A DNA stretch of 26,255 nt from Deinococcaceae bacterium (GCA_040256005.1 JBDZWC010000001.1:60305-86559), one strand, 5' to 3'. Shown: positions 4,109-21,594, counted from the stretch's first letter. The notes: generated by a model from the letters alone, not told the origin. Translations and numbers: made by a program.

Positions 4109-4142
4109 GGGAAGACACCCTGCCCGCCGTGCTCCTGGCGGC

Positions 4143-5378
4143 TCAGGTCCAGAGCGTGGCTACCGGCGCCGCGAACAGCCGGTCGCCGAACGACAGGACC
4201 GAATCCCCGTCGTGGAGCAGCACCCCGCAGGCGAAACGCTCGCCCAGGTGTTCCCTCAGCCTGTTCAGGCCCCTGAAGTCTCCCTGTCCGATGGTCGCCG
4301 CGGCCTTGACCTCGACGGCCGCGATGGTGCCGCCTGGCGCCTCGATCACCACGTCCACCTCCGAGCCGTCGCGGTCCCTGAAGTGGGAGAACCGCAGGTC
4401 GTCGTCCCGCCAGCTCGCTTGCCTCACGAGCTCCTGGAGGACGAACGTCTCCAGCAGCGGGCCGTAGAGATGACGGTCGCGGTAGACGGCTTCCGACGTC
4501 ACGTTCAGCAGGGCGGCCGCCAGCCCGGTGTCGCCGACGTGCAGCTTGGGGGTCTTCACGAGCCGTTTCAGGCGGTTGTTGTGCCAGGCCGGCAGCTCGT
4601 AGAGCAGGAACAGCCGCTTGAGCAGCGAGACGTAGGTGGCGATCGTGGGTCGGGAGAGCTGGAACGGCGCCGCCAGCTCCGTGAAGTTCAGCATGCTCGC
4701 GGTGTGGGAGGCTGCCACCTGCAACAGGCGGGGTAGCGTCTCGGCCGACGTCACCTTGGCGATGTCCTGCACGTCGCGCTGCGCCAACGCCTGGCTGTAG
4801 TCGCGGTACCAGGCGCGGCGACGGGCTTCGGCCCCTCGGGCCAGGGCCGCGGGGTACCCGCCTGCCACGACCCGCTCCGCTAAGCGACTCCCGAGGCGCT
4901 CCGTACGCTCGCCACGGAACCGGGCGGCCAGCAGCCTGTCGAGGAACCGAGGCTCCGATCCCTCCAACTCCGCCTGCGCCAGCGGGTGGAGCGGCACGAC
5001 CTCCATCCGCCCGGCCAGGGAGTCGGATAGGCCTCGCGTGCTCAGGAGGTCGGCCGATCCGGTCAGCAGGAAGCGGCCGGCCCGGCGGTCCTCGTCGACC
5101 GTCCTCTTGAGAGCGGTGAACACCTGGGGCGCGCGCTGCACCTCGTCGATCACGGCGCGGTCCGGCAGGTCGTCCACGAACCGGATCGGGTCGGCGGCTG
5201 CCGCCGCGCGCGTCACGTCGTCGTCGAACGTGAAGTAGCCGTAGCCCCTCTGCGCCGTGAGGGAACGCGCCAGCGTCGTCTTCCCGCTCTGCCGCGGCCC
5301 CTGGAGCAGCGCGACGGGCGAGTCGGCGAGCGCCTGGAGCAGCCTGTCGCGCACGAGCCTCGGGACCGCCGGTTGCAT
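4143..5378 (-). CDS. AAA+ ATPase (AAA_14) with wHTH and C-terminal DUF4143 PD-(D/E)XK-like domain
   Basis: Walker A GPRQSGKTT, Walker B VIDEVQ, LTGSA, SLAGR, GGYP, KTPKLHVGDTGL and EVDVVIE...AVEVK. Start placed at the ATG at 5378 (MQPAVPRLVRDRL) rather than 5471. Confidence 0.88.
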   Translation of the reverse strand: MQPAVPRLVRDRLLQALADSPVALLQGPRQSGKTTLARSLTAQRGYGYFTFDDDVTRAAAAADPIRFVDDLPDRAVIDEVQRAPQVFTALKRTVDEDRRAGRFLLTGSADLLSTRGLSDSLAGRMEVVPLHPLAQAELEGSEPRFLDRLLAARFRGERTERLGSRLAERVVAGGYPAALARGAEARRRAWYRDYSQALAQRDVQDIAKVTSAETLPRLLQVAASHTASMLNFTELAAPFQLSRPTIATYVSLLKRLFLLYELPAWHNNRLKRLVKTPKLHVGDTGLAAALLNVTSEAVYRDRHLYGPLLETFVLQELVRQASWRDDDLRFSHFRDRDGSEVDVVIEAPGGTIAAVEVKAAATIGQGDFRGLNRLREHLGERFACGVLLHDGDSVLSFGDRLFAAPVATLWT

Positions 5379-5440
5379 CCTCGGCGAAGTGTAAACGGCA
5401 TGGCCGGCAGAACGCAAATGACATGGGCGGCAGAACGTAA
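5376..5440 (-). repeat. Three imperfect 19-bp direct repeats at 23-bp period, ending in the ATPase start codon
   Basis: Minus strand reads TTACGTTCTGCCGCCCATG-tcat-TTGCGTTCTGCCGGCCATG-ccgt-TTACACTTCGCCGAGGATG, with copies at 5422-5440, 5399-5417 and 5376-5394. Confidence 0.7.
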
Positions 5441-5486
5441 GCCCGGGGATCGTAGCAGCGTGTGGTTCCACTCTGCTGGCGGCCGG

Positions 5487-5765
5487 TCAATCGCTGACCC
5501 TCGCTACCCACCAGCCCTCGCCCTCCCGGTACAGCTCGACCCTCACGCCGCCCTCGAGCTCGACGAAGAAGTAGTCGCGGTGCAGCTCTTCCGCTTCCCA
5601 CCAGCGGCCGTCGTAGCACCAGCTGTCGATCACGGAGAGGACGCGACTCGGGCGCCGGCCCTGGCCTTGCCTTCGCGGGCGGGAAGCGGGCTGGTCCCAC
5701 GCCACCGCCGCGGGCGTGCCATCCCGAGCGGGCGTGACGACGGCCGGTGTCATGAGCACGCGCAC
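5487..5765 (-). CDS. Small ImuB C-terminal-like protein (DUF6504-like)
   Basis: VLSVIDSW.YDGRWW...RDYFFVELEGG.RVELYRE...WWVARVSD matches the ImuB C-terminal/DUF6504 pattern. It starts 12 nt after the imuY stop. Confidence 0.8.
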   Translation of the reverse strand: MRVLMTPAVVTPARDGTPAAVAWDQPASRPRRQGQGRRPSRVLSVIDSWCYDGRWWEAEELHRDYFFVELEGGVRVELYREGEGWWVARVSD

Positions 5766-5777
5766 GGCTTACCCGCC

Positions 5778-7322
5778 TCACGCGGCCTCGAGGCCGTACT
5801 CCTCGGTGTAGCGCTGCCGCGACCCGTTGAGAAGGGAGCTGCTGCGGCCGCTGGGCTCCGTCCTGCCCGCGCTCTCGGCATGGGATGCGGCGCCAGCCGA
5901 CACGTGAGCGTCCTCGGTGTCCGCGTGCGCGCCGGTGTCTTCCCCGCCGGTGAACAACGCGTCGAGGTAGGACGCCGCTGCGCCTGTGGCGTCCGTGGGC
6001 TGAGGGGCGGCCGGTAGGCCGGCGGATGAGAACTGCTGCGGGACATCCCCACGCGTCAGCGGCGCCACCTCGGCCGTGCCGTCGAACAGCGGGACCGCCG
6101 CCGCCGTCACGGCGGCCGGTGTCAGCGGGGCCTTCGTCACGTTGCGAGCCTGCGCCGTGCCCCCCACCCTCCGGCTCACCACCGAGGCGTTGGCGTACGC
6201 GCCGTCCTCGTCAGCGTAGCCACGCCAGCGCCAGACGAGGTCGACCGCCTGGGAGTGCGTGTCTCCCCATTCGAGACGGCGTTGGGCCGTGGGGAAGCGC
6301 TCCAAGGTCGCCTCGAGGGCGCACTGTCTACGCTCGCGCACCGGCCACAACCCCTCCTGCTCGGCGAGCCGCTCGGGCGAGGCGAGCTCCAGGGTGAGGC
6401 GTTCGATGGGTTGCCCGTAGGCGTGGCTGTCCTCCAATGCGAACAGCGCCTGCTGGCGGATGTGGCGTGCCTGTGTCAGGGGCCGCTTGCTCAACCGGCT
6501 CGCGCGCCTGGTGCCGCTGGGAAGGCTGGCCGTGAGCGTCAGGCGGCGCGTCGTGCGACCCCCCAGCTCGCGGGCCAGCTCCCCGGCTAGCCTGTCGAGC
6601 GCCGGCAGGAGGCGCTGGGGCTCGACCACGGGGTCCTCGAAGGCGAGCGAACGAGCGACGGCCGGCGCCGGCTCGAACGGCCGCAGATCGGTGTGGCGGG
6701 GACCGTGTAGGTAGGGGAGGAGAGCATCGCCCTCCGCCGCCAGGTACGAAGAGATCTGGGAGGCGGTCCAGCTGGCGAGATGGGCAGCCGAGGACAGCCC
6801 CAGCCATGTAAGGCGGGTGAGGTTGGCTTCGGACAGGCCGACCCTGCGCAGGAAGCGCAACGGCAAGCGAGCCAGGAAGCCCTTCACGTCATCGACGCGC
6901 CTCACCGTTCCGGGGCGGGAACTGACGGCGGCGAGCTCGGCCGTCTCGCGGTCATGGGCTAGGCCGACGCGGACGCCGTAACGGGCGGCCAGCTCCTCGG
7001 CCTCGACGTCGTCCAAGCGCGCCAGCGCCCTGCCGCGCGCCGCACCCTCGACCCACGGGGTGTGCTGGTTGAGCTCGCGCAGGAGCTCCTCCCAGGCGTG
7101 TTGGAGGTCCGGCTCCGTGTGGGAGACGACCTCGAGGCCCTCGACGCGCATGCGCGCGCCGTCCAGCCGCATACCCGGCGTGATGCCGTGGCGCCTGGCG
7201 GGGGCGTTGGCGTGAGTGACGCGTTCTTCCTGAGCGCTGACGAGGGGTACCCGGGCGAGCCCAGGATCGCTCCTGACGGCCAGGTAGAGGTCCAAGGGAT
7301 CGAAGCAGAGGGACGCGATCAT
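5778..7322 (-). CDS. imuY: Y-family polymerase homolog ImuY/ImuB-like, probably catalytically inactive
   Basis: IMS-like N-terminus (HANAPARRHGITPGMRLDGAR), FLARLPL..L..VGL..LTWLGL, little-finger-like region and QEGLW clamp-like motif. It lies between lexA and dnaE2. Confidence 0.85.
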   Translation of the reverse strand: MIASLCFDPLDLYLAVRSDPGLARVPLVSAQEERVTHANAPARRHGITPGMRLDGARMRVEGLEVVSHTEPDLQHAWEELLRELNQHTPWVEGAARGRALARLDDVEAEELAARYGVRVGLAHDRETAELAAVSSRPGTVRRVDDVKGFLARLPLRFLRRVGLSEANLTRLTWLGLSSAAHLASWTASQISSYLAAEGDALLPYLHGPRHTDLRPFEPAPAVARSLAFEDPVVEPQRLLPALDRLAGELARELGGRTTRRLTLTASLPSGTRRASRLSKRPLTQARHIRQQALFALEDSHAYGQPIERLTLELASPERLAEQEGLWPVRERRQCALEATLERFPTAQRRLEWGDTHSQAVDLVWRWRGYADEDGAYANASVVSRRVGGTAQARNVTKAPLTPAAVTAAAVPLFDGTAEVAPLTRGDVPQQFSSAGLPAAPQPTDATGAAASYLDALFTGGEDTGAHADTEDAHVSAGAASHAESAGRTEPSGRSSSLLNGSRQRYTEEYGLEAA

Positions 7323-7438
7323 GCGGCGGCCACCCTCACCCTCAGGAGCGGGGGTCGCCCGGCGGGCGGGCGACCGGGACGAGGCGGTATGCCTCGGGGG
7401 CGGACGACCTTCGTTTCCGTGCGTGACGGTGTTAGCAT
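7319..7438 (-). CDS. Putative 39-aa Pro/Arg-rich ORF translationally coupled to imuY
   Basis: MLTPSRTETKVVRPRGIPPRPGRPPAGRPPLLRVRVAAA*; its TGA overlaps the imuY ATG (ATGA). RBS is weak. Confidence 0.45.
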   Translation of the reverse strand: MLTPSRTETKVVRPRGIPPRPGRPPAGRPPLLRVRVAAA

Positions 7439-7569
7439 GCGAACGACCTAGTCAGGACCGCGGCAGCGGTCGGATATGGGCGGCGAAAGGACACATTCCC
7501 TTGCTTGGCGGCGGTGGATGTGTCCTTCGTTATCGGTGGGCCAGGATCGCGGGCGTGATGGGCGGTCCC

Positions 7570-8202
7570 TCAACCACCCCTTTCGAGCAACAGGTCCTGC
7601 ACGACGTCTCCGCGGAGTAGACCGCGCATGACGCCGTCCACGTGCAGCTGCGAGGCTGGGACCGTGAGGGTTGGGTACGCGGGGTTGTGAGGGCGGAGGC
7701 GGTACTGCTTGGGCCTGCTCGAGCGTGCTTTCCACTCGAGGTACTTGAGCGTGGACTCGTCGTCGCCCACCCGAACGGCGCAGACCTCACCAGAGCGCTG
7801 CGGTTCGGCGCGGTGGAGCAGCACGACGTCGCCGTCCTCGATGCGGTCCGCCATGGAGTCGCCCCTGACGCGCAGCGCGAAGTGGTCCGGGCGGCCGCGC
7901 AGGACCAGGTGGCCCTCGGGTTCCGGGTAGCTGCCGATGGGGAGGCCGGCGGCGATCTCGCCGAAGAGCGGCACTCCCGCGTTCACGCCCAGGAGCTTCA
8001 GGCGCGGGGCCCGTCCGGGGCCACGGCTCTCCATGACCAGCTTGCCCTTGGCCTCGAGCGCCTTGAGGTGCTCCCTGAGGGTGGGATAGGTGATGCCGAA
8101 GCTGCGAGCCAGAGCTGAGAGGTCCGGCGTGGTGCCCGCGCGCTCGTAAGCCGCACGCAGCGCGCCCAGGATCTGGTTCTGCTTGACCGGCCGTGGCGGC
8201 AT
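7570..8202 (-). CDS. lexA: LexA-family repressor (wHTH + S24 peptidase)
   Basis: HLKALEAKG wHTH, VPLFGEIAAGLP (Ala-Gly cleavage site), LRVRGDSM (catalytic Ser) and TLKY (catalytic Lys). GGGAG RBS. Confidence 0.92.
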   Translation of the reverse strand: MPPRPVKQNQILGALRAAYERAGTTPDLSALARSFGITYPTLREHLKALEAKGKLVMESRGPGRAPRLKLLGVNAGVPLFGEIAAGLPIGSYPEPEGHLVLRGRPDHFALRVRGDSMADRIEDGDVVLLHRAEPQRSGEVCAVRVGDDESTLKYLEWKARSSRPKQYRLRPHNPAYPTLTVPASQLHVDGVMRGLLRGDVVQDLLLERGG

Positions 8203-8321: not shown

Positions 8322-8693
8322 ATGGCCGACATGGAGCCGAACGACAGGGAGATCCTCCGACTGGAGCGCAGCTTCTGGTTCAGCGACGCCCCGTTCTACG
8401 AGGCCAACCTGACGGCCGACTGCCGCATGACGTTCCCCAGCCTGGGACTGCTGGACCGCGACCAAGCGATCGCCGGCATAGCAGCGGGCCCACGCTGGGA
8501 CTCGGTTGAGATGCGGGAGGAAAAGGTACAGCGATTGGGGGCAGATGCCGCCGTCGTCTCCTACGCGGCCAGGGCGCGGCGCGGCGAAGAGGTCTACGAG
8601 GCGCTGGTGGGCAGCACGTACGTGTGGGAGAGTGGCACCTGGAAGCTCACCTACCATCAACACACCCCGGTGACGCCCCAGGCAACGAACTAG
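8322..8693 (+). CDS. SnoaL/NTF2-like protein (DUF4440-like)
   Basis: LERSFW...FYEANL..D..M.FP, LGADAAVVSY.A.A, STYV....WKLTYHQHTP. TAGATT lies 5 nt before the ATG at 8322. Confidence 0.8.
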   Translation: MADMEPNDREILRLERSFWFSDAPFYEANLTADCRMTFPSLGLLDRDQAIAGIAAGPRWDSVEMREEKVQRLGADAAVVSYAARARRGEEVYEALVGSTYVWESGTWKLTYHQHTPVTPQATN

Positions 8694-8694
8694 C

Positions 8695-8949
8695 TCAGAG
8701 GTCAGCGTCCTCGAGGGCGGCGCCGAGCTTCTCCAGCTCCTCACGGTTGAGCCGCTCCCGCCTCTCGCGCTCGGTGAGGATCGCCCTGACGTCGGCGGCT
8801 TCGATGAGCAGCGGAGCGGCGGTAGATCCGCGCGACGCTACGCCAGCCTCGACCACCATCTCCATCAAGGCGTCCTCTGACACGCCGAGGACCTCGGCGG
8901 CCTGCGCCAGGGTCAGCGGAGGTTCGGCGCTGTCGCGTCGGCGTGCCAT
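8695..8949 (-). CDS. Small helix-turn-helix protein (HTH_17/excisionase-like) with charged C-terminal helix
   Basis: PLTLAQAAEVLGVSEDAL pattern; it fills the gap between flanking genes. Confidence 0.6.
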   Translation of the reverse strand: MARRRDSAEPPLTLAQAAEVLGVSEDALMEMVVEAGVASRGSTAAPLLIEAADVRAILTERERRERLNREELEKLGAALEDADL

Positions 8950-8995
8950 CAGGAACAGAGGTTACGCCGGACGGGACCGGGGTAGCCTTCGACCG

Positions 8996-10042
8996 GTGAA
9001 CGACCCCACGACACCGACCAAGCCACCCCGGCTACGGGCGGGCGACACGCTCTGCGCCGTGTCGCTGTCGAGCGGCGGGGCGGCCGAACACCCGCTGAGG
9101 TACGAGCAGGGCAAGCGGCAGATGGAGGAGACGTTCGGGGTAAGGGTGATCGACGCCCCCAACGCGACGGCTGACGACGCCTGGCTGTACCGCAACCCGG
9201 AGGCCCGGGCCGACGATCTCCACTGGGCGTTGCAGAACCCCGAGGTGACGGGCATCGTCTCCGCGATCGGCGGCGAAGACTCCGCGCGCATCCTGCCCTA
9301 CGTCGACCCGGCCATCATCCAGAGCAACCCGAAGGTGTTCATGGGCTTCTCGGACGCGACCGTGACGCTCACCGCCTTCAGGAACGCCGGCTTGGTCGCG
9401 TTCCACGGCCCCGCCGTCATGACCGACCTGGCCGAGAACGGCGGCATCGTGCCGTTCGTCGAGCGCAGCGTGCGGCGCAACCTGTTCGAGGCCTGGACCG
9501 GCCCGCTCGAGCACGCGACCGAGTGGACCGAGCAGTACCTGCACTGGGGCGATCCCCGGCTGCTTGCCGAACGGCGACGGTTCTTACCCAGCGAGGGACC
9601 GGCCTGGCTGCAGGGCGCAGGTAGCGTCGAGGGGCGGCTGGAAGGCGGCAACATCGAGGTGCTGGAGTTCCTCAAGGGCACGCCATGGTGGCCGGGAGCC
9701 GAGCGCTGGAGCGGCGCCGTGCTGTGCCTCGAGACCAGCGAGGAGGCCCCATCGGTGAGCGCGGTCAAGCGCTTCCTGCGCAACTACGGCTCGCAGGGCG
9801 TGTTGAGCGTCGCCGCTGCTCTGCTCCTGGCCCGGCCACAGAACTACGCGGCGCGCGACAACTGGTTGCTACAGCAGGGGGTCATCGAGGTGCTCGCCGA
9901 GTTCGGCAGAGAGGACATGCCGGTCGTCGCGAACCTCGACTTCGGCCACACCAGCCCGCAGATGGTGCTGCCGCTGGGCTGTTGGCTCCGCGTCGATTGT
10001 GCGGCACGGCGACTGGTGCTCATGGAGCCGGGGGTCACCTGA
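8996..10042 (+). CDS. S66 family peptidase (LD-carboxypeptidase/MccF-like)
   Basis: KPPRLRAGDT, RADDLHWA, IGGEDS, NPKVFMGFSD (Ser), HGP, LCLETSE (Glu) and FGHTSP (His). Start placed at the GTG at 8996, with TAGCCT 7 nt upstream. Confidence 0.9.
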   Translation: MNDPTTPTKPPRLRAGDTLCAVSLSSGGAAEHPLRYEQGKRQMEETFGVRVIDAPNATADDAWLYRNPEARADDLHWALQNPEVTGIVSAIGGEDSARILPYVDPAIIQSNPKVFMGFSDATVTLTAFRNAGLVAFHGPAVMTDLAENGGIVPFVERSVRRNLFEAWTGPLEHATEWTEQYLHWGDPRLLAERRRFLPSEGPAWLQGAGSVEGRLEGGNIEVLEFLKGTPWWPGAERWSGAVLCLETSEEAPSVSAVKRFLRNYGSQGVLSVAAALLLARPQNYAARDNWLLQQGVIEVLAEFGREDMPVVANLDFGHTSPQMVLPLGCWLRVDCAARRLVLMEPGVT

Positions 10043-10116: not shown

Positions 10117-10929
10117 TCAGGCGTTCAGGTCGGAGTCGCCGCCGCCGAGTAGCAGCGAGCCGAGGTGCAGGCGCGAGGCCTTCGCGACCGCTGCCTCCAC
10201 GACGGGAAGGCTGGCCTCTCCCAACGGGAGGACGAGCTCGGCGCGCGGCCGGGCCACGCCGAAGCCCTGCACGTGAGTCGCCCCGAGCGCCGCGATCCGG
10301 TCGCATAGGGACGCGTCCTCGACGCCTTCGACCACGACGATCGGGAAGCGCTGAGCGAGCTCCAGGACGAAGTCCTCCAGCTGACGGCGGCGGGCGCCCT
10401 CTGCGATGCCGAGGGTCACGCTGCGGTCCACCTTGACGCCGTCGACGAGGTCGCCACGCGGGATGCGGTCGTGCAGGTCCGACTCGGTCACGTCATCGAG
10501 GAGAACGGCACCGCACAGCTCCCCCACGGCGCGGAGGCTGCCCCACAGGCGCCTGCTGTCCCCGAAGCGTTGTTCGGTGAGCTCGATCCTCACTCGCGCG
10601 GCGACGGCCGGCAAGAGACCTTCGAGCGCCTTCGTGGTGGCGGGGCTGACGAGCTGCCGCGGCGAGAGGTTGATGGACACCTGGGCGGAGTCGTGCTGAG
10701 CCAGCACTGCGGCAACGCGTTCGATGCTGAAACGGGTGAACACGTCTTGCCGCTTCTCGGCGAGCCAGTGCGGTAGCACGTCGAGAGGCCCGCGCACCGT
10801 GCCGTCGGGCAGGTTCCAACGGATCAGCGCTTCGGCCCATTCCGGCTCGCGGTCGACCAGAGCTACGACCGGCTGGAACTGGAAGGCCAGCTCGTTGAGA
10901 GGGGGTGTTTCAGTCGCGGATTCGAACAC
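10117..10929 (-). CDS. Stand-alone EAL domain protein (c-di-GMP phosphodiesterase-like)
   Basis: FQPVV, EALIRW, SINLSPRQL, IELTE, LLDD, VKVDRS, VVEGVE and VQGF..ARP. Loop 6 is degenerate (DDVTES rather than DDFGTG). Confidence 0.85.
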   Translation of the reverse strand: MFESATETPPLNELAFQFQPVVALVDREPEWAEALIRWNLPDGTVRGPLDVLPHWLAEKRQDVFTRFSIERVAAVLAQHDSAQVSINLSPRQLVSPATTKALEGLLPAVAARVRIELTEQRFGDSRRLWGSLRAVGELCGAVLLDDVTESDLHDRIPRGDLVDGVKVDRSVTLGIAEGARRRQLEDFVLELAQRFPIVVVEGVEDASLCDRIAALGATHVQGFGVARPRAELVLPLGEASLPVVEAAVAKASRLHLGSLLLGGGDSDLNA

Positions 10930-11075
10930 TGAGGGGTCCCAAGGGACTTCCTAATCGGCGTGGCTGACGTGAAGAAGGTGGAGATGACGAGGATCTGGGT
11001 CCCTGAGAACCTGCCGACCGACGCTGCCACGTACCCCCCTCGGTACGCGTACGCCGGTGGCTACGACGCGGTGGG

Positions 11076-11222
11076 TCAGCCGGCGTCCCACTCGCCCTTC
11101 TGGCCAGCGCTGTCGGCGATCACGGCGTTGGGGGAGAAGGCGTTGGCGACCTGGACGGAACCGAAGGCGAGGCCGAGGACGGTGAGGGTGACGGCGAACG
11201 AACGAGCGATCTTCTTGAACAT
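11076..11222 (-). CDS. 48-aa secreted peptide precursor (not in the ORF track)
   Basis: AGGAGG (11236-11231) lies 8 nt before the ATG. Translation MFKKIARSFAVTLTVLGLAFGSVQVANA|FSPNAVIADSAGQKGEWDAG* has a basic n-region, hydrophobic h-region and A-N-A cleavage site. Third codon positions are mostly G/C. Confidence 0.8.
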   Translation of the reverse strand: MFKKIARSFAVTLTVLGLAFGSVQVANAFSPNAVIADSAGQKGEWDAG

Positions 11223-11247
11223 CGTGAGTACCTCCTGAGATGGATGA

Positions 11248-11342
11248 AAGCTAACTGGGTGGGCGCTTCAGACCCGCTTCAACCTCTGAGGGCCTGCGGT
11301 CCGGCAGTTGATGCGGCGCTGAATCGCCCGCCTGCCTAGCCT
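11248..11342. promoter_or_regulatory. Two divergent mirror-image promoters with heptamer direct repeats
   Basis: Minus: TGAAGCG-ggtc-TGAAGCG-10nt-TAGCTT (11281 to 11248). Plus: TGATGCG-gcgc-TGAATCG-10nt-TAGCCT (11309-11342). Both are followed by an AGGAGGTAC RBS. Confidence 0.7.
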
Positions 11343-11368
11343 TCTGGCACTGATTAGGAGGTACGCAG

Positions 11369-11560
11369 TTGGACAGGTCCGAGGCACTTGCACGACTCTC
11401 GAGGTCGACGCGGTTCCAGTTCGTTGGGGAACGACTGGTGGTCCGTGACGTCGCCCTCCTCAAGGCGATAGCCGAGGTGCAGCGGGTCGAAGAGGAGACC
11501 GGGGTAGCAGCGAGCGCCGAGGCGCAGGTGGCGCCACGCTACGAGCTCTTCGCTGCTTGA
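11369..11560 (+). CDS. 63-aa hypothetical protein
   Basis: Strong AGGAGG RBS before the TTG, its own promoter motif, and a small hairpin just after the stop (TAGCGG..CCGCTA, 11561-11581). Confidence 0.65.
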   Translation: MDRSEALARLSRSTRFQFVGERLVVRDVALLKAIAEVQRVEEETGVAASAEAQVAPRYELFAA

Positions 11561-11647
11561 TAGCGGCTCCTTCGACCGCTAGGCGAGTACACCCACTGGC
11601 GACTTAAGACACGTCAGACCTGGCTGGGACGGGGCTATCCTTCCGGC

Positions 11648-14098
11648 ATGTGGTTGCCGCGCGTCGCCCAAACGGTAGCGGACTCCGATAGGCCCGTCGC
11701 CCTTCTCGGCGGCGAGCCCTTCGGTGTGCCGTTCCTGATCGACGCGCTGGGCAAGCAGGCGCCCTTGGTCTGGTTCGAGCTCGGCCCGGCGGCGTCGGAC
11801 GACCCCGTGGCTCAGGGGAACGCGCTCGCGCGCGCCGTCAACCGGATGTTGACGTCGCCGTTGCTCTCCCTGGCGCTCCCGTACCGGTCGCAACTGTCTG
11901 CGCTGGCACGGTTCAGGTCGGACCTACAGCCTCTGCGCTTCGCGGTCACGACCCATCGCCTCGACCTGCCGTTCTTGGCTGACCTCCTCGAGCTCCATGG
12001 GAACGGTTACTCGGTCTTGCTCGACGTCAGGCAACCGGTCGCCCACGGCGAAGAGGTCCTGTCGCACTGTCGCGTCGTGGGCCATGAACAGCTCATGGTC
12101 ACCCGCGCCGAGGCGGGCGAGATGCTCCCCGCCGCGCTCGACGCCGCTGCCGTGGAAGCGCTCTGGAGGCGTTCCCGGGGCCGCTTCACCGAGCTCAGCG
12201 CCCTGGCGAACGAGGCCGTTAACCTGCCGCGGCTCAACGTGCCCTCACCCGAAGGGCCTCTCCTGCCCCCGGGTCAGGAGGAGTTGATCGATCCGCGCCT
12301 GGCGGTCTACGCCTACATGCGGGAGGGCGACCCGATCTCCGCGCTGGAGCTCGCTGTGTTGCGCGCTCCCGAGCTGGTAGACGACCTGCTCAGGACGGCC
12401 GGACCCAGGTTCCAGTCGGAGGGCCTTCTGGAGCGTCTCCACCTGCTGTTGTCCGCGCTACCGGAGTCGCACTCGCGTGGGGAGCGGGTGCTCGAGTGGC
12501 GCTTGGTGGCAGGCGTGGCCACGAACGACCTGCAGGGCGTGGGGGAGGACGTCGACGCCTACCTCAGCGCCCACTCCGCACCCACGTTGCGCGCCAGACG
12601 CGCAGGGACGATCCGCCATGACAAGGGCTTCGCCATGGCCGAGCAGGCCGCCCAGGCGAGACGCACGCCCGTGACGCTATGGCAGTACGGCAGGCTTCAT
12701 CCCAACGACGAGACGGCTGTCGACCTGCTGCGAGAGAGCGTGCGGCTCGCCGAGGAGCAGGGCAGCGCCTACGACGTGGCGCGCAACGCGTACAGCCTCG
12801 CCTCCCGACTGCTGCACATGGGCGAGTTCACGCGGGCGGCCAGTTGGGCGCGCTGGGCCCTCGACGTGGTCGACCGCGAGCAGCTTCAGGACGGGAACAG
12901 ACGTCTGCAGATCGTCAACCAGTTGGCCATGGCTCGGATCATGACGGGGGACCTTCTGGGGCTCCGGAACCTGTTGGAGGACGCCCAGGCCTTGGTCGAA
13001 GGCAGCTTGCCTCACCTGGCGACGTACTTCCGCAGCACCCTGGCCCAGCTCGAACTGGCCGAGGGCCGTCCGGCCGAGGCGTGCGAGCTGCTCAAGGCGA
13101 CCTACCACGCCAGCCCCAGGAAGTACCGCGGGCGTTACGGGTATCAGCTGGTGCGGGCCCTCCTCGAGCTGGGCCGCTCCGACGAGGCCGTCGAGGTGGC
13201 GAGTGACGTGTGGGAGGTGTCGTCCGCAGGAGGAGGTTTCGAGCGCACCCTCGCGGCTTTGGCTCGTGGCATGGCGGGGGCCGTCACCGGCGCGCAAACG
13301 GCGGCAGACGACCTTCTCGAGGCCATGCTCGATACCGACCTGATCGCGGAGCAGCGCATGACGGCCGCTCTTTACTACCTGCTCGCCACCGGTGGGGCGG
13401 CCCACAACGTGCCAGGCGAGCTGGTGCCGCTCCTGGCCGGCCTGCACCCCATCGGACGAGCGGTACTCAGCGGGCCAGCAGGCGCGTTCGAGCGCGTGTG
13501 GGGCACCCTCTCCTCCCCTCGGGCACCGCTCACGCTCAAGTTCCTGGGTGGCTTCGAGGGCAGGTACGAAGGCGAGGACCTGCAGCTGCCGCCCCGGCTG
13601 GCAGAGGTCGCGTTGGCGATCGCGCTTAACCCGGAGGGCACCACGCGCGACGAGCTGAACGACTTCCTGGCTCCGGCCGGACACGCCCCCTTCACGAGCG
13701 GCGGGATGCGCAGCATCGTCACCCGTCTGCGGCAGGTGCTTCCCGTGAGCGACGCACCCTATCGCTTCACTGTCCATTACGAGGCCGACGTCGTGCAGTT
13801 GCGGGAGCTGATAGGCGCCGGCCGCATCAGGGAGGCCGTCAGCCTCATGAGGGGGCCACTGCTCCCGCACAGCGAGGCTCCCGGCGTGGAGGAGCATCGC
13901 ATGGAGCTCGAGGAACACCTCAGGCAAGCCGTGCTCATGGCCGGTGACCCCGACGCCCTCTACGACCTCGCCGAGAGGCTCACCGACGACCTGGAGTTCT
14001 GGCAGGCCGCCGCCGCGGCCCTGTCGAACGGTGACCCGCGGCTGGCGCTGGCACGCGCCCGGGTCAAGCGCCTCGAGGAAGCGTACGGCTTGTCCTGA
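11648..14098 (+). CDS. Large transcriptional regulator: degenerate MalT/STAND-like N-terminus, TPR-like helical repeats, C-terminal OmpR-type wHTH + BTAD-like (SARP-type) domain
   Basis: C-terminus LKFLGGF..RYEG..LQLPPRLAEVALAIALNPEG.TRDEL...RSIVTRLRQVL, then AVSLMRGPLLP.SEAP.VEEHR..LE. Central Ala/Leu-rich paired helices. TATCCT lies 6 nt before the ATG. Confidence 0.72.
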   Translation: MWLPRVAQTVADSDRPVALLGGEPFGVPFLIDALGKQAPLVWFELGPAASDDPVAQGNALARAVNRMLTSPLLSLALPYRSQLSALARFRSDLQPLRFAVTTHRLDLPFLADLLELHGNGYSVLLDVRQPVAHGEEVLSHCRVVGHEQLMVTRAEAGEMLPAALDAAAVEALWRRSRGRFTELSALANEAVNLPRLNVPSPEGPLLPPGQEELIDPRLAVYAYMREGDPISALELAVLRAPELVDDLLRTAGPRFQSEGLLERLHLLLSALPESHSRGERVLEWRLVAGVATNDLQGVGEDVDAYLSAHSAPTLRARRAGTIRHDKGFAMAEQAAQARRTPVTLWQYGRLHPNDETAVDLLRESVRLAEEQGSAYDVARNAYSLASRLLHMGEFTRAASWARWALDVVDREQLQDGNRRLQIVNQLAMARIMTGDLLGLRNLLEDAQALVEGSLPHLATYFRSTLAQLELAEGRPAEACELLKATYHASPRKYRGRYGYQLVRALLELGRSDEAVEVASDVWEVSSAGGGFERTLAALARGMAGAVTGAQTAADDLLEAMLDTDLIAEQRMTAALYYLLATGGAAHNVPGELVPLLAGLHPIGRAVLSGPAGAFERVWGTLSSPRAPLTLKFLGGFEGRYEGEDLQLPPRLAEVALAIALNPEGTTRDELNDFLAPAGHAPFTSGGMRSIVTRLRQVLPVSDAPYRFTVHYEADVVQLRELIGAGRIREAVSLMRGPLLPHSEAPGVEEHRMELEEHLRQAVLMAGDPDALYDLAERLTDDLEFWQAAAAALSNGDPRLALARARVKRLEEAYGLS

Positions 14099-14157: not shown

Positions 14158-15951
14158 TCAGGCGAGCCGCTCGAGCTCGGCGACGTGCCTCTCGAGCACA
14201 GCGAACGCCCGCTCGATCGGCGCCGCGGTGCTCAGGTCCACGCCCGCGGCCTTGAGCGCCTCGATCGCGGGGACCGAGCTACCGGCTCGCAGGAAACCCA
14301 GGTAGCGCTCCGCCGCCCCGGGCTCGCCCTCGTAGACGTCCTCGGCGAGCGCTGCCGCCGCCGCGATGCCCGCGGCGTACTGGAACGTGTAGAAGGGGAC
14401 GTAGAGGTGACCGAACTCCGCCCACGTGATGCCGACCTGCTCGTCTACCTCTATCGCGTCGCCGTAGCCCTCTGCGAACAGCTCGCGCATCTTCGCGTTC
14501 AGCTCCTGCGCGGAGAGCCCCTCCCCGCGAGCCACGGCTTCGTGTACCCACAGCTCGAACCTCACCAGGGTGGGCATGATGAAGAAGTACCGGTGGAAGT
14601 TGCCGAAGGCCTCGTCCAGCACGTCGAGCCTCGCGTTCGCAGTGGTGAACCGCGACAGCAGGTGGCGCCTGACCAGCGCCTGGTCGAAGTTGGATGCCGT
14701 CTCGGCGGCGACCATGGACACGTCGGTGTAGGCGATCGGTTGCGCCGAGTCCATCAGGACGTCGTGCATCGCGTGACCCAGCTCGTGGGCCAGGGTCGAG
14801 GTAGCTCCCAGGTCGTCCGCGTAGCTCATCATGATCTGCGGCTGGTAGCCGTAGGCATGTGAGCAGAAAGCGCCGTCCCGCTTCCCCCGGTTCGGGTAGA
14901 CGTCTACCCACCGCTCGGTCTCGAGGCCGCGGCGGAGCGGGGCGACGTACTCCGGGCCCAGCGGGGCCATGCCCTCGAGGATCCAGTCGATCGACTGGCG
15001 GTAGGGCACGACCATCGGCTCCGGCGACAGTGGCGCGAAGACGTCCCACTCCTCGAGGCTGTCGAGGCGCAGGAGCTTGCGGCGTGCGGCCCAGTAGCGG
15101 TGCCAGACAGGGAGGTTGGCGGTGAACGTCTCCAGGACTGACTCGAGCACGGCCCTGGGCACCTCGTACGGTTCGAGCGCCTGTGCCAGCGTGTCGTCGT
15201 AGGCGCGCGCCCTGGCCGTGAACACGGCTTGCTTCACGCGACCGAGGTAGAGCTCGCTGAGCGTGTCGGAGTAGGCGAGGAAGCCCTTCTTGAACGAGCG
15301 GTAGGCCGCCTCGCGCAGGGCCCGGTCACGTGAGCCCCTGAGCGCGGGGTAGGTGCTGCGCTCGACGACGTACTCCTGGCCACCGACCCGCAGGGGCTCG
15401 AACCGGATCTCTCCGTTGGCGAGGCTGTTGTAGGCGCGCTGAGCAGCGCCGAACGGGTCGCCGAGGCCCTGGAGAAGCTCCTCGACCTCCGTCGAGCGCA
15501 CGTGCGGGCGTCGCGCCTCCAGCATCTCGAAGTAGCGGCTCAGGTAACCCAAGGCGGGCTCTTCCCGCACGAACGCCTCGAGCTTGTCGCTGCCCAGCGC
15601 GAGGAGTTCGGGCACGACGAACGCCAGGCGCTGTCTGACCCGGTTACGAAGCGCCAGGAACTCGCCGGCCTTCTTGCGCGCCTCCTGGTCATGCTGGTCG
15701 ACGTTGACCGGCAGCGTGGCGTAGTTGCTGAGTCGCTGAAGCGTGGCGTCGAGGCCGAACTTGAGTTCCAGGAACTCGGCCAGGGTGGCGGCCGACTCGC
15801 CGAGTCGCCCCCGATAGGCGGCGACGGTCTCGGCCTCGGCCGTGATGCGCGCCAGGTCGGAGCGGTACTCGTCCTCCGTGGCGTACAGGACCGAGAGGTC
15901 CCAGGTGTAGGCGGGGTCGAGCTCGGAGCGTGCTGGCATCGTGACTGGCAT
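14158..15951 (-). CDS. pepF: Oligoendopeptidase F (M3B)
   Basis: TWDLS.LY, RWVDVYPNRGKRDGAF, TLAHELGHAMH (HExxH), AETASNF and HLYVPFYTFQYA. Start placed at 15951, with TACACT 6 nt upstream. Confidence 0.93.
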   Translation of the reverse strand: MPVTMPARSELDPAYTWDLSVLYATEDEYRSDLARITAEAETVAAYRGRLGESAATLAEFLELKFGLDATLQRLSNYATLPVNVDQHDQEARKKAGEFLALRNRVRQRLAFVVPELLALGSDKLEAFVREEPALGYLSRYFEMLEARRPHVRSTEVEELLQGLGDPFGAAQRAYNSLANGEIRFEPLRVGGQEYVVERSTYPALRGSRDRALREAAYRSFKKGFLAYSDTLSELYLGRVKQAVFTARARAYDDTLAQALEPYEVPRAVLESVLETFTANLPVWHRYWAARRKLLRLDSLEEWDVFAPLSPEPMVVPYRQSIDWILEGMAPLGPEYVAPLRRGLETERWVDVYPNRGKRDGAFCSHAYGYQPQIMMSYADDLGATSTLAHELGHAMHDVLMDSAQPIAYTDVSMVAAETASNFDQALVRRHLLSRFTTANARLDVLDEAFGNFHRYFFIMPTLVRFELWVHEAVARGEGLSAQELNAKMRELFAEGYGDAIEVDEQVGITWAEFGHLYVPFYTFQYAAGIAAAAALAEDVYEGEPGAAERYLGFLRAGSSVPAIEALKAAGVDLSTAAPIERAFAVLERHVAELERLA

Positions 15952-16016
15952 GCCGAGAGTGTAAAGCGGGTCGATACGCACAGCGCATCGACCCGCCCGG
16001 GACCCACCGCCGGCGG

Positions 16017-16289
16017 TCAGCCGCCGGTGTGCGGACCGATCACCTCGCTCACGACGGTCACGACGTCGCACGGGAACCCGCCGCGCCGAGCGTGCTCACG
16101 CACCACGTCGGCGTTCTCGCACTCGTGGACGCAGTAGAGCTTGTCGCCCGCGACGTAGCTGTGGAGCCAGGTGTACGGGACGCCGAGGGACTCCACGACG
16201 GCGTTGGAGGCGCGGGCGATCTCCTTCAGCTGCTGCTCGGTCAGGTCTCCTGCACCAGGGATCGTCCTCTCGATGATGAAGCGTGGCAT
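16017..16289 (-). CDS. DUF4242 (SCO4226-like) small protein
   Basis: MPRFIIER.IPGAG.L, WLHSYV..DKLYCV, VREHARRGGFPCD.V..V. GGAG RBS. Confidence 0.88.
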   Translation of the reverse strand: MPRFIIERTIPGAGDLTEQQLKEIARASNAVVESLGVPYTWLHSYVAGDKLYCVHECENADVVREHARRGGFPCDVVTVVSEVIGPHTGG

Positions 16290-16366: not shown

Positions 16367-18979
16367 CTAGGTTTGGATGTCGAGGCCCTTGCTGGCGTCG
16401 ACCAGTCCGTGGGCGACGGCCTGGGCGACCGCCGCGGCACGGTTCTGGACCTCGAGCTTCTGCAGAACGGCAGACACGTGGTGCTCGGCCGTCTTGGCCG
16501 TGATCGAGAGGCGCTCGGCGATCTCCGAGTTCGTTAGGCCCGCTGCCATCAGCGCCAGCACCTCGGCTTGCCGCGGGGTAAGGTTCGCAGGGTGAGAACC
16601 CGTGCTGCGCCTGGGCCCGCGCGGGATGCCGACGATGCCGCGCGCCCGCATCTGCGCGGTCAACCGGGCCGCCGCTGGGACCGCTCCGAGGCGCTTGAAG
16701 CTCGCCACGGCGTCACGCATCGCGGCCTCGTCGCCGTGGGCGAGGGCGAAGGCCCTCTCGTACGGGCAACCGATCTCCTCCCACAGCCCCGCGGATCGCC
16801 TCCAGTCCCCCTCGACGAGAACGGCGAACGGCTCAGCGGAGCCGTTCAGCGGCTCAGCTATCGCGCCGGCCCTCCAGAGCCACAGAGACACCTCGCCGCG
16901 CGCCCATGGGCTGTCGGCCGCCTTCACCTGTTCGAGGATCGGCTCTAGGATCCCGGGTATCTTGGCGGTCCTGTCCTCCAACCAGGCGAGCTCTGCCAGG
17001 CCGCACACGGGCGACCACCGGTACTGGAGGGCGCTCTTCGGACTGATCGCCAGCGCGCTCCTGAGCGTGTCCGCCGCGCCGTGGTCCCCGCGCCTCACCT
17101 GCACCCTGCCCCAAGCCCCCTGAGCCGTCATGGGACCGATGAAGCCGTGGCCGGGCAGTGGCCTGAAGGTGGAGGCCAGCCTCTCGGCGTCGTCGTAGCG
17201 CCCCTGCTCGAAAGCGACGCGCGCCAGCCATGCGCGGCCGTAGGCGACCGAGGCGTCGTCGTCCGTCTGGGTCGCCTCCTCGACCAGCTCCTCGAGAGCT
17301 GTGATGGCGATGTCGTAGAGCCGACCTTCGCCAGCCCCCGAGCCGAGCATCCACAGTGCGTTCTGCGCGCCGCGCTTGAACCCCAGGCGATCGGCGAGCT
17401 GTCGGGCCTCGAGCTCGATGCGGGCACCTTCGCGTACGTCGCCCATCACGAGCTGCGCGGCACCTTCGACGACCATCGCGGCCACCTCCATGCTGCCGTT
17501 GCCAAGCTCTCTGGCAGCGTCGAGGGCCGCGCGAGTCGCCTCCATGGCCGGCTCGTAGCGGCGCCTCAACATGGAGACCAGGGCCTTGTAGTAGTGGCTG
17601 CGGGCCTTCTCGGGCGAGAGCGGCCTCTCGGACAGGAGCGCCCGGGCCTCCTCCACGGGAGCATCGGCCTCGGCGTCGCGCCCCATGCGGAAGCGTGCGT
17701 AGCCCAGCATGCCGAGCGCCTCGGCCAGTGGTTCAGGGTCGCCGAGGCGTGAGCGGATATCGACGGCCCGCTCGCACTGTTCCAGCGCCTCGGCGTGGAG
17801 GTCGAGGACGTCGGCGGTAGTGGCGAGCTGGACCCTGATGCGGGCCTCCGTCGCCTCGTCCATGTGCTCCCGCCTCTCGAGAGCGATCCTCAGGAACTGA
17901 GCGGCCTCCCGGTGTGCGCCGCGCTCGGTCGCCTGGCGGGCCGCGGGCTGGGCGAAGCGGACGACGAGGTCCCAGGCGTGAGCCCGCCCGGCATGGTGTG
18001 CCAGCCTCGCGTAGTCCTCGGGTTCCTGCTCCGAGAGCAGGTCGATCATCGCGCGGTGCCACTCGAACTGGCGGCCCAGCGGCGTGGCCGCCTCGACAGC
18101 GGTCCTGGCCAGGTCGTGTCGGAAGCGCAGGAGCGCGCCCTCGACGAGGAGGATGCCGGCGCCGGCCGCCTCGTCGACCGCCTCCGCACCTACGTCGGCG
18201 ACCTGCAGGGCGTACTCGATCTCGAGCGACCTGGGGGCCGAGGCGACGACCTCGACCAGGCGCCTGGCCCCGGCGCCGAGACGCCCGGCGCGCGCCATCA
18301 CGGCCTGCCTCACCGTGTCCGGCACCTCGTCGCCGGAGGCGATCACCTCCGTGACGAAGAAGGCGTTACCGTCGGTGGCCCTGTGGATCCGCGCGGCGCG
18401 TGAGGCGTCGGCGCCGGACAGGGTCTGCACCGCCTCGATGGAGAGGGGAGGTACTCCCATCGTGAGCGTCGACGGTCTTCCCACTAGGTCACCCACGACC
18501 TGGCGTGCCGGGTGTTCGGGACCGATCTCGTCGTCCCTGTACGTCGCCACTACCATGGAGGGCAGGTCCGCGATGCGTCGGCCGATGAACCGCAGGAAGT
18601 CAAGCGTGCCGGCATCCGCCCAGTGGATGTCCTCCAACACCAGTGCGATCGGGATCGTGGCCCCGGCGAGGCGCCGCTGTACCGCGGTGAACAGCTCGTA
18701 CGGTTCCGCGCTGGAGGCGAAGGACTCGGCCAGGTGCGCTCGTGGGTCCAAGGCGATGTCGACGAGGGGACTCAACGGCCGCGGTGTCGTGAGTGGGTCG
18801 CACGCGCCGAACAAGACGTGTGCCCTGCCGATGGACCGGTGACCGAACTCGGTGACGAGCGCGGTCTTGCCGGCGCCCGCTTCGGCTCCGACGAGCACCA
18901 GTGAGCCGCGCCCCTGGGTAGCGGCCCTGAGCCGCTCTGCGAGCTGCTCGAGCTGTGCCTGCCGTTCCAGCAGTGGCAT
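16367..18979 (-). CDS. LuxR-family STAND (AAA_16/MalT-like) ATP-dependent regulator
   Basis: LLER, GAEAGAGKT Walker A, LVLEDIHWAD Walker B, TDGNAFFVTE, FRHDL, TPR region and C-terminal LTPRQAEVLALMAAGLTNSEIAERL.IT.KTAEHHVS LuxR HTH. Confidence 0.9.
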   Translation of the reverse strand: MPLLERQAQLEQLAERLRAATQGRGSLVLVGAEAGAGKTALVTEFGHRSIGRAHVLFGACDPLTTPRPLSPLVDIALDPRAHLAESFASSAEPYELFTAVQRRLAGATIPIALVLEDIHWADAGTLDFLRFIGRRIADLPSMVVATYRDDEIGPEHPARQVVGDLVGRPSTLTMGVPPLSIEAVQTLSGADASRAARIHRATDGNAFFVTEVIASGDEVPDTVRQAVMARAGRLGAGARRLVEVVASAPRSLEIEYALQVADVGAEAVDEAAGAGILLVEGALLRFRHDLARTAVEAATPLGRQFEWHRAMIDLLSEQEPEDYARLAHHAGRAHAWDLVVRFAQPAARQATERGAHREAAQFLRIALERREHMDEATEARIRVQLATTADVLDLHAEALEQCERAVDIRSRLGDPEPLAEALGMLGYARFRMGRDAEADAPVEEARALLSERPLSPEKARSHYYKALVSMLRRRYEPAMEATRAALDAARELGNGSMEVAAMVVEGAAQLVMGDVREGARIELEARQLADRLGFKRGAQNALWMLGSGAGEGRLYDIAITALEELVEEATQTDDDASVAYGRAWLARVAFEQGRYDDAERLASTFRPLPGHGFIGPMTAQGAWGRVQVRRGDHGAADTLRSALAISPKSALQYRWSPVCGLAELAWLEDRTAKIPGILEPILEQVKAADSPWARGEVSLWLWRAGAIAEPLNGSAEPFAVLVEGDWRRSAGLWEEIGCPYERAFALAHGDEAAMRDAVASFKRLGAVPAAARLTAQMRARGIVGIPRGPRRSTGSHPANLTPRQAEVLALMAAGLTNSEIAERLSITAKTAEHHVSAVLQKLEVQNRAAAVAQAVAHGLVDASKGLDIQT

Positions 18980-19222
18980 GAGGATGCGCCCCCTGGTGGG
19001 TCTTTCCGCCCGCGTTGCCGTCGTCGCGGGCCACGATAGCAAGGTCCTTCTCGGTGCGCAGGTCCTGGACGGGCGAGAGACGCGGGTGGGTGACGGCCCG
19101 TTCCCCTCGGTGTTGTAGGGTAGGTAGTTCCCGAGCGGTCCGGCATCGGAGCCGGTGTTGGACCGTACGGCAGGTGACGCTTACGTCGTTTACCCCTTCA
19201 GATCGACCGCAACGGAGTGCGA

Positions 19223-20575
19223 ATGGAACCCATACCGGCAACTAGAGAGGGCCCTCACGGGGGCCCCGAAGCAACACACGAGTCAGCGAAGATCTCGGTC
19301 CGCGGGCTCTACAAGGTCTTCGGACCGGAACCCGGCAGGGCGATCGGCGCCCTCGAGAAGGGCGCGACCAAGGCAGAGGTCCAGGACCGCCTCGGCAACG
19401 CCGTCGGGGTCGCCAACGTCGACCTCGACGTGCACACCGGTGAGACGTTCGTGCTCATGGGCCTGTCGGGCAGCGGCAAATCCACGCTGTTGAGGCTCCT
19501 CAACCGCCTGCACGAGCCCACGGCGGGCAGCATCCTGGTCGACGGGATCGACATCACCACGCTCAGCAGGCGCGAGCTGCTCGAGGTGAGGCGTCAGAAG
19601 TTCAGCGGCATGGTGTTCCAGCAGTTCGCGATCCTGCCGCACCGCACGGTCCTGGACAACGTCGGCTACGGCCTCGAGGTCCAAGGGGTGCCCGCCAGCG
19701 AGAGGCGGGAACGGGCGCAGAGCGCGATCGAGCTGGTCGGCCTGGCCGGGTGGGAACAGGGCTACCCGAGAGAGCTGTCGGGAGGCATGCAACAGCGCGT
19801 GGGCCTGGCTCGCGCGCTGGCGGTGGACGCCGACATCCTGCTGATGGACGAGGCGTTCAGCGCCCTCGATCCACTGATCCGTCGTGAGATGCAGGACGAG
19901 CTCATCGATCTGCAGACGCGCATGCGGAAGACGATCGTGTTCGTCACCCATGACCTCGATGAGGCTCTGCGCCTGGGCGATCGCATCGCGATCATGAAGG
20001 ACGCCCGCGTGGTCCAGGTCGGGACGCCGGAGGAGGTGATCACCGAGCCGGCGGACGACTACGTGGCCGCCTTCGTCGAGGGCGTGGACCGCAGCGACGT
20101 GCTCACGGCCGGCAGCATCATGCAGCCGGTCAAGGAGACAGCGAGGTTGCAGGACGGCCCTCAGTCCGCTCTGAACAAGATGCGACGCTCCGGCATCTCG
20201 GGCATCCTCGTCGTCGACGCTGAGCGCCATGTCTTGGGCTACCTGAGGTCGGAGCGGATCGTCGCCGCCATGCGGGAGGGCGGTGTCGAGCAGGGCAGGA
20301 TCCATGGGGACCTGATGGACCCGGCACCAGCCGTCACGACCGAGACGCCGCTGAACGAGGTCATCGACGTCGCCTCGGAAGGCTCCGCCCCGGTAGCCGT
20401 CACTGACCCTGCCGGTAGGCTCCGCGGTGTGGTCGTGAAGGGCGCCATCCTGGCCGCGTTGGCGAGGCCCGGCCGCGACGGAGGAGAGGACCACACGCCA
20501 GCCGCGGCCGAAGCTGCCGTACCTGCGCCCACAGGAACGGCGGGCGCCGTCGCGGACCGGGGGCGCCATGTTTGA
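19223..20575 (+). CDS. opuAA: Glycine betaine/proline ABC transporter ATP-binding subunit with CBS domains (OpuAA/ProV)
   Basis: [45 protein letters not shown] and a C-terminal CBS pair. Confidence 0.92.
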
Positions 20576-21407: not shown

Positions 21408-21594
21408 AGGGGCTTCACGGCATGTTAACCGGGTAGCACCGGCGTCGCACCGCCGGTTGGCACCTCGGATGAGCTCGTGTTACGGTCGCAAGGTCGCCGT
21501 GTTCGGCGCTCGTCTGTATGCGTACGTACGTACGCTCGCGGAACGTTCTTGGTTCCGTCGCCGTCAAAGCCCCGTATTCGTCGGGAGGTAACAA

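Follow-up and report, generated by a model that had tools for sequence, protein, structure and literature searches.

A candidate peptide-pheromone module of Deinococcota with a STAND-TPR-SARP regulator and a predicted c-di-GMP output

We analyzed a 26,255-nucleotide stretch of DNA from a Deinococcaceae bacterium (GCA_040256005.1, JBDZWC010000001.1:60305-86559; hereafter the window), in which four genes form a candidate peptide-signaling module: a 48-residue (aa) secreted-looking propeptide, a stand-alone EAL protein, a 63-aa protein and an 816-aa regulator. The peptide is probably the ligand of this regulator, and we lean towards the full chain, namely an autoinducing peptide circuit of activating sign that lowers cyclic di-GMP (c-di-GMP). 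Considering the wider family, we cautiously favor the view that such regulators represent a second class of cytoplasmic receptors for peptide pheromones that was assembled independently of the first, comprising a MalT-like STAND module without nucleotide switching, a peptide-reading TPR domain and a C-terminal SARP domain. Within the diderm Deinococcota, this class would be widespread, use many peptide dialects and drive interchangeable outputs (EAL, HD-GYP, radical-SAM and lanthipeptide operons); in the Trueperaceae, it would form a self-contained c-di-GMP quorum switch, to which a novel small protein would belong as modulator.

The window belongs to contig C132, part of a 3.1-Mb genome assembly (97% complete, 250 contigs). 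An earlier note on this DNA had called the four open reading frames (ORFs), all of which we found in place (Table 1), and had assumed a Deinococcota host, in agreement with the name Trueperaceae (Deinococcota) that close relatives of the regulator carry. Among species-representative genomes, we found 54 orthologous loci, whose regulators are 39–93% identical and about 810–860 aa long. Layout counts are based on the 49 loci in which the sequence extends 800 nt or more upstream of the regulator; the hidden Markov models (HMMs) of the peptide, 63-aa and EAL genes were trained on the very loci counted, and ORFs were also inspected directly. The layout was constant, with the EAL gene detected in 49/49 loci and the 63-aa gene in 48/49, the single miss being an assembly gap. 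The note had staked its proposal on secreted-peptide ORFs adjoining homologous regulators, and they do so at 47 of the 49 loci by HMM and at the other two by eye (L080, a four-repeat variant) or up to a gap of Ns beyond which the last peptide codons are readable (L073). Flanking genes were variable, and no other gene cluster occurred in 20 or more of the 54 loci.

Table 1. Features of the module (positions counted from the first letter of the window)
Feature	Position	Strand	Remarks
EAL gene (270 aa)	10117-10929	minus	probable second gene of the peptide transcript; PF00563
48-aa secreted propeptide gene	11076-11222	minus	ribosome-binding site (RBS), signal-like N-terminus, conservation
Predicted mature 12-residue peptide DSAGQKGEWDAG, codons 37-48	11079-11114	minus	predicted cut after Ala36
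Shine-Dalgarno sequence AGGAGG of peptide gene	11231-11236	minus	perfect match; kept in homologs
Peptide/EAL promoter: box TGAAGCG-N4-TGAAGCG (11264-11281), -10 TAGCTT (11248-11253)	11248-11281	minus	
63-aa-gene promoter: box TGATGCG-N4-TGAATCG (11309-11326), -10 TAGCCT (11337-11342)	11309-11342	plus	
63-aa protein gene	11369-11560	plus	new family; conserved across loci
Leaderless promoter, -10 TATCCT, 6 nt 5' of the regulator start	11636-11641	plus	
816-aa regulator gene	11648-14098	plus	STAND NOD-WHD-arm, TPR, C-terminal SARP

Judged by a hydropathy rule, the propeptide has a basic N-region and a hydrophobic core; no Pfam domain matched it. Its orthologs range from 46 to 117 aa, the longest being repeat forms, and its gene is under purifying selection (pairwise dN/dS, the ratio of nonsynonymous to synonymous rates, of 0.40 over nine close loci, the pairs not being independent). 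Alignment of 34 peptides with a single core showed no variation at Asp46 and Gly48 and hardly any at Ala36, and we infer that maturation cuts after Ala36. The core is tandemly repeated two to four times in 7 of 47 precursors (L048, L056, L059, L063, L064, L080 and L081), each tandem core being preceded by Ala or Gly and the copies of L056 lacking a linker; these repeats point to a mature unit of 11–12 residues. Three more precursor genes carry assembly gaps. Duplicated pheromone cores are known from Phr propeptides, according to PMC11343458. The 45 distinct precursors have 36 different 12-residue ends, in which D-x-G is fixed and the inner positions vary, a pattern that may reflect a specificity code; it counts against this interpretation that the D-x-G count is partly circular because the ORF picker required the motif, although a motif-free filter found the same ORFs. 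No modifying-enzyme gene was found in the 54 orthologous loci. RNA-library contigs from three studies span the peptide gene and reach into the spacer that separates it from the EAL gene, and two cover the 63-aa gene; this is weak evidence, as neither strand nor level is given and uncovered parts are uninformative.

The claim that both promoters carry the same heptamer direct repeat stands, the repeat being exact on the peptide side (11264-11270 and 11275-11281) and having one mismatch in each copy on the 63-aa side (11309-11315 and 11320-11326). Both boxes end 10 nt short of TANNNT and overlap the -35 position, which also bears out the suggested 11-bp period near -35; in AfsR-type/SARP promoters, as described in parts of PMC10936776, repeats of 11-bp period overlap the -35 and end 8 bp before the -10. 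When up to two mismatches in total to TGAAGCG-N4-TGAAGCG were allowed, 44 of 55 loci had boxes on both strands, five had one on the peptide side alone and six had none. TANNNT lay exactly 10 nt past the box in 48/49 cases on the peptide side and in 41/44 on the 63-aa side (9 nt in the other three). Dinucleotide shuffling of the 146-nt spacer never produced twin boxes (0 of 5000 shuffles). A scoring matrix from whose training the window was excluded ranked the module's own sites first (peptide side, 35.3 bits) and second (63-aa side, 26.5 bits) genome-wide. No wider regulon was found in the 250-contig genome, where the third-best site reached 15.4 bits versus 17.5 in a reversed control, and the regulon is the module itself. 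One of the six box-less loci is a gap, and the five gap-free ones all have an altered recognition helix. Related loci show the same geometry with other repeats, such as TCAACGG or TTGCAAC; a repeat search of L087 and L108 found none, and the peptide promoters of L063 and L084 carry three heptamers rather than two. A scan for sigma-70 promoters and terminators gave no matches.

According to the earlier note, the regulator runs divergently from the peptide gene together with the 63-aa ORF. This layout holds and can be refined, as the regulator also has its own leaderless -10: TANNNT precedes its start by 5–9 nt in 54/54 loci (by 6 nt in 39), a pattern that passages of PMC12340547 describe for Deinococcus-Thermus.

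The regulator consists of a degenerate STAND NOD-WHD-arm module (residues ~1–320), which the first reading of this DNA had not mentioned, a TPR sensor (~324–620) and a 192-aa SARP part (625–816), the latter made of an OmpR-type winged helix-turn-helix (wHTH) and short BTAD-like helices. The best Foldseek match of the full-length structure model (predicted local distance difference test, pLDDT, 90.6) was the STAND-TPR protein 6mfv (E 1.8e-7); residues 1–297 aligned to MalT (8bob; Z 13.3) and residues 622–816 to AfsR (Z 13.8). Folded alone, the C-terminal domain matched AfsR (E 5.6e-7, TM 0.70) and EmbR (E 2e-5) and nothing else at E <0.001, so that its designation as a SARP-type effector is upheld by the fold. 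Its profile matched OmpR-family DNA-binding domains, with Trans_reg_C found in 18/81 and BTAD in 6/81 members. The TPR region aligned best to peptide-bound Rap (4gyo; Z 23.9, root-mean-square deviation 4.0 over 319 residues) and also to MalT domain III (Z 21.8) and NprR (Z 20.2). On the sequence level, Pfam matches to TPR were weak only, precomputed Pfam assigned PF27103 (YTH3_C) to most regulator homologs, and the full-length profile had no significant match among PDB sequences. The P-loop reads GGE-x-x-G-V/A/T-P, with GK in 0/96 rows, and the NOD therefore appears dead and nucleotide switching lost. Eight TPR-helix residues (R349, R379, R418, R419, N424, R462, R503 and R570) are fixed in 48–52 of 52 clade members, and we infer that the conserved Arg/Asn residues line the TPR groove.

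The EAL protein matches PF00563 with E 5e-27, and alignment to solved EAL structures showed the full metal-binding and catalytic set: R37, N87, E116, E119, D145, D146, K166, E201 and Q221 are present in 46/46 aligned sequences and E33 in 45/46, with roles assigned by comparison with RocR. On this basis, the protein is predicted to be a c-di-GMP phosphodiesterase. None of the 24 peptide-EAL spacers with a placeable start contained TANNNT (27 rows were not placeable), and the EAL gene is therefore probably carried on the peptide transcript. In two genomes (L085 and L109) an HD-GYP gene with intact HD and GYP motifs stands directly behind the peptide gene in the EAL's slot. HD-GYP genes divergent from the peptide were seen in L113 and L115, the latter with two near-identical tandem peptide genes (L115:8780-9149) beside a REC-HD-GYP gene; a metagenome scan for further HD-GYP-type loci confirmed none.

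Some of these data can be read differently, and the EAL protein might have little catalytic activity and serve as a c-di-GMP receptor or adaptor instead of a phosphodiesterase. This reading, compatible with the preferred circuit as well as with the alternatives discussed below, is rather unlikely in our estimation. In its favor, loop 6 reads DDVTESD here and is likewise degenerate in orthologs (DD-V/I-T-x-x in the aligned set), thereby departing from DFG(T/A)GYSS, which passages of PMC12943098 call essential for EAL activity. Moreover, scores to active EALs are low (best PDB E 8e-8) and the RBS is weak or absent. Against a mere receptor role, neither the metal ligands nor the general base vary among 46 sequences, and the unrelated HD-GYP fills the same slot. 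Besides loop 6, two observations weigh against a strict coupling to c-di-GMP. First, the HD-GYP swap is a single event, confined to one genus of two genomes. Second, the sister loci L107, L110 and L111 keep the peptide and the 63-aa gene and have no EAL match, so that c-di-GMP is no obligatory output.

The 63-aa protein has a conserved 45-residue core and a variable tail, and its gene likewise evolves under purifying selection, with dN/dS values of 0.19 for the first 46 codons and 1.03 for the tail (nine close loci, pairwise, the pairs not being independent). We found 81 homologs, the named ones all Trueperaceae or 'hypothetical', no match in Pfam or NCBIfam, Atlas matches that were all <0.9, and no internal homology to the regulator or the EAL protein. 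A possible HTH_17/Xis-like identity was discarded, as its hhalign probability of 0.8 was lower than that of column-shuffled controls. A FastTree built from 66 regulators unites the 31 rows with a 63-aa gene in one branch (SH support 100): 26 of them show the EAL layout, and in the other five, which are sister to these, the peptide/63-aa pair is found on the downstream side of the regulator. In these five sister loci the 63-aa gene accompanies regulator and peptide without the EAL gene, and we consider the protein a candidate feedback modulator of the regulator. In two loci (L087:4029-5084 and L108:3610-4743) an S58 (DmpA-like) aminopeptidase gene is located between the 63-aa gene and the regulator gene.

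The pairing of regulator and peptide extends well beyond these orthologs. The regulator profile matched 93 of 251 Deinococcota genomes (E ≤1e-40), some through one part only, and 310 cluster representatives at 1e-30. In 60 further loci picked from the profile matches, about ten of which belong to the 63-aa branch, signal-peptide ORFs were ~16 times denser near the distant regulators (23 in 81 kb, within 700 nt) than farther away (6 in 333 kb); the 3.1-Mb host genome has 32 such ORFs. Regulator and peptide genes are direct neighbors in many distant loci, where the peptide ORFs are mostly convergent with the regulator and their cores unrelated. The pairing persists through rearrangements (upstream divergent, downstream convergent, upstream tandem) with differing cores. 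Cultured Deinococcus strains hold distant members, for example on the D. actinosclerus plasmid CP029777 (L172); of 34 plasmid records that matched, two, both from Deinococcus, span 80% or more of the regulator, and no relative was found in viral contigs.

Several distant loci have a composition of their own. Radical-SAM operons, some with a luciferase-like monooxygenase, point at the distant regulator in L119, L121, L172, L092, L139 and L112, and the last gene of the operon is a signal-peptide ORF in L119, L121, L092 and L112; these loci are possibly pheromone-controlled or pheromone-modifying clusters for ribosomally synthesized and post-translationally modified peptides. A class III lanthipeptide synthetase (RamC_N, kinase, LanC-like; L124:1011-4627) is divergent from a peptide ORF, L127 has two tandem regulators and one peptide, and five loci (L097, L136, L137, L140 and L141) have a 33–46-aa ORF upstream of the regulator that consists almost entirely of a signal peptide, followed by a tail of very few residues.

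The circuit that we prefer would work as follows. The leaderless promoter, observed as a sequence pattern, would provide a basal level of regulator. The propeptide would be exported by Sec and cut after Ala36 into a 12-mer ending in D-x-G, which an Opp/Dpp-type permease would re-import. The 12-mer would then bind in the TPR groove, where the invariant Arg/Asn residues could hold the Asp and the C-terminal carboxylate, and with a dead NOD the peptide would take over from ATP/inducer control. Two SARP domains on the 11-bp-period boxes over the -35 would activate both divergent promoters, with three consequences: more peptide, as positive feedback; more EAL phosphodiesterase and a lowered c-di-GMP level, to which the MshEN-bearing pilus ATPase would plausibly respond along with further receptors; and an increase in the 63-aa protein, which would most likely restrain the regulator or serve as its co-factor. 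In the host genome, one frame of 896 residues combines three MshEN domains with a Walker A; there are also 25 SBP_bac_5 (family-5 binding protein) matches, one Omp85 gene, 12 GGDEF matches and five further EAL-bearing frames. PilF of Thermus is reported to bind c-di-GMP (PMC11731258).

Several findings argue against this circuit. About one third of the 60 further loci show no adjacent peptide ORF by the filters used. A paralog in the host (C18:9264-11360; 31% identity over 620 residues) likewise lacks a detected peptide or box; located behind a phosphate ABC operon, it is possibly an orphan receptor. The TPR fold match is unspecific, as the sugar-binding MalT DT3 (Z 21.8) tied with Rap 8rte (Z 21.5) in an unbiased structure search and eukaryotic TPRs reached Z 18–21. 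All loci are related by descent, and the counts therefore exaggerate independence. Lastly, the Omp85 gene implies that the peptide must pass an outer membrane for cell-to-cell action.

The sign of the circuit could also be the opposite. Following the logic of Rap-Phr or AimR-AimP, the empty regulator would be active and accumulated peptide would shut it off, resulting in a pulse or timer with high EAL levels at low density and c-di-GMP rising later. We regard this as unlikely, even though the best structural neighbors are Rap proteins, which are inhibited by their peptides (as the title of entry 4i9c states), the NOD that arms STAND activators is dead, so that the default could be on, and peptide-gene RNA contigs come from three unrelated studies. 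A 63-aa gene under the same box is more readily interpreted as braking a positive loop, and tandem cores, which would raise the signal per transcript, suit amplification.

The peptide could furthermore be a mere output. Here, the TPR domain would sense a small metabolite, as MalT does with maltotriose, and switch on the EAL gene, the 63-aa gene and a secreted peptide serving as effector, chelator or signal of another receptor. The MalT-like overall architecture, the distant peptide ORFs that end radical-SAM operons or adjoin a LanKC gene like a biosynthetic product, and the family members without a peptide would all fit. We nevertheless give this idea little credence, as the orthologous loci are devoid of modifying enzymes and the persistence of the regulator-peptide unit with different cores fits ligand-receptor pairing better. 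Finally, self-sensing by a peptide that stays periplasmic, returns to its producer and informs the c-di-GMP network about diffusion, a leaky envelope or proteases active in the periplasm, would agree with the outer membrane indicated by Omp85, with a 12-mer that is large for general porins and with a regulon limited to the module, but is improbable given the wide core divergence among close relatives, which is expected from kin discrimination and less so from self-sensing.

Regarding the surroundings, the module is bordered by genes for an S66 LD-carboxypeptidase (8624-10042, plus) and an oligopeptidase F (PepF; 14158-16071, minus). We rejected these peptidases as module parts, as the PepF cluster occurs in only 10/54 loci; an ABC binding-protein cluster adjoins the module in 13 loci other than these 10. 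Such flanking PepF, S66 and ABC binding proteins could have a local role in peptide turnover or uptake. Two genes off the module, a second, intact STAND-TPR-LuxR regulator is encoded (16367-19042, minus), which has several paralogs in the genome. At 779-8202 (minus), the window contains a lexA-imuB-dnaE2 mutasome-type cassette, with an ORF for a 442-aa P-loop ATPase of putative family assignment (4143-5471) between imuB and dnaE2. Long minus-strand ORFs at 4096-5781, 19283-20959 and 21415-22314 had no Pfam matches and were dismissed, as they look like shadow frames.

If the proposed reading is true, Deinococcota possess a peptide language of their own, peptides can be read by STAND sensors, and direct wiring of a pheromone to c-di-GMP turnover is possible. 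A published RRNPP detector would drop the 816-aa receptor on length and domain order. These ideas are directly testable, as the operator has been located, a probable 12-mer proposed and natural pairs of peptide and receptor collected by the dozen, and orthogonal peptide-activator-promoter sets would make useful components in synthetic biology.

Passages of PMC10075063 present peptide quorum sensing in the cytoplasm as a trait of Bacillota, and the string 'Deinococc' occurs 0 times in the main texts of PMC10075063 and PMC9765709. Our literature search, which covered few subscription papers, found no description of a system such as this one. Like the RRNPP(A) systems of Bacillota, the module has a small, Sec-type-looking propeptide with a C-terminal core that is at times tandem, a nearby cytoplasmic TPR protein whose superhelix aligns to Rap and NprR, and a predicted autoregulation of the peptide gene; at 48 aa, the propeptide also lies within the 10–100 aa given for RRNPP(A) in part of PMC10075063. 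Unlike RRNPP(A), where receptors measure ~250–500 aa and, according to parts of PMC9765709, carry an N-terminal effector (HTH or three-helix bundle) and C-terminal TPRs, the regulator here has 816 aa, with the STAND module first, the TPRs in the middle and the effector at the C-terminus. This effector is of the SARP rather than the HTH_3 type and has a direct-repeat operator, a 63-aa gene separates receptor and propeptide, which are direct neighbors in RRNPP(A), the core has 11–12 residues, the host is a member of the Deinococcota with Omp85, and the output is a predicted c-di-GMP hydrolase. The idea of an RRNPP-like yet architecturally different circuit thus proved apt, as the module appears to work alike and yet falls outside RRNPP(A) by receptor length, domain order and adjacency.

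The EAL protein resembles MorA/RocR-type EALs in its complete metal-binding and catalytic residues and is set apart from other stand-alone EALs with a degenerate loop 6 by its position behind a pheromone-like gene, without a sensor domain or a -10 of its own. The regulator shares with MalT-family STAND proteins (E. coli MalT, P. horikoshii PH0952) the order NOD-WHD-arm-TPR-DNA-binding domain, matching 6mfv, 8bob and 1hz4, but its Walker A (GxxGxGK[ST]) is not intact, with the lysine absent in 96/96 rows, its effector is of the SARP instead of the LuxR type, and its predicted ligand is a gene-encoded peptide instead of a sugar. With the SARPs AfsR and EmbR it shares a wHTH with a BTAD-like fold and 11-bp-period direct repeats just upstream of the -10. 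It differs from AfsR, in which the SARP domain is N-terminal of NOD and TPR, by a SARP domain that is C-terminal and shorter (192 versus ~250 aa), and from SARP activators by a heptamer ending 10 nt rather than 8 bp from the -10 and by a NOD that is not intact. The module is a member of neither the MalT nor the AfsR class: it is built as MalT and ends as AfsR.

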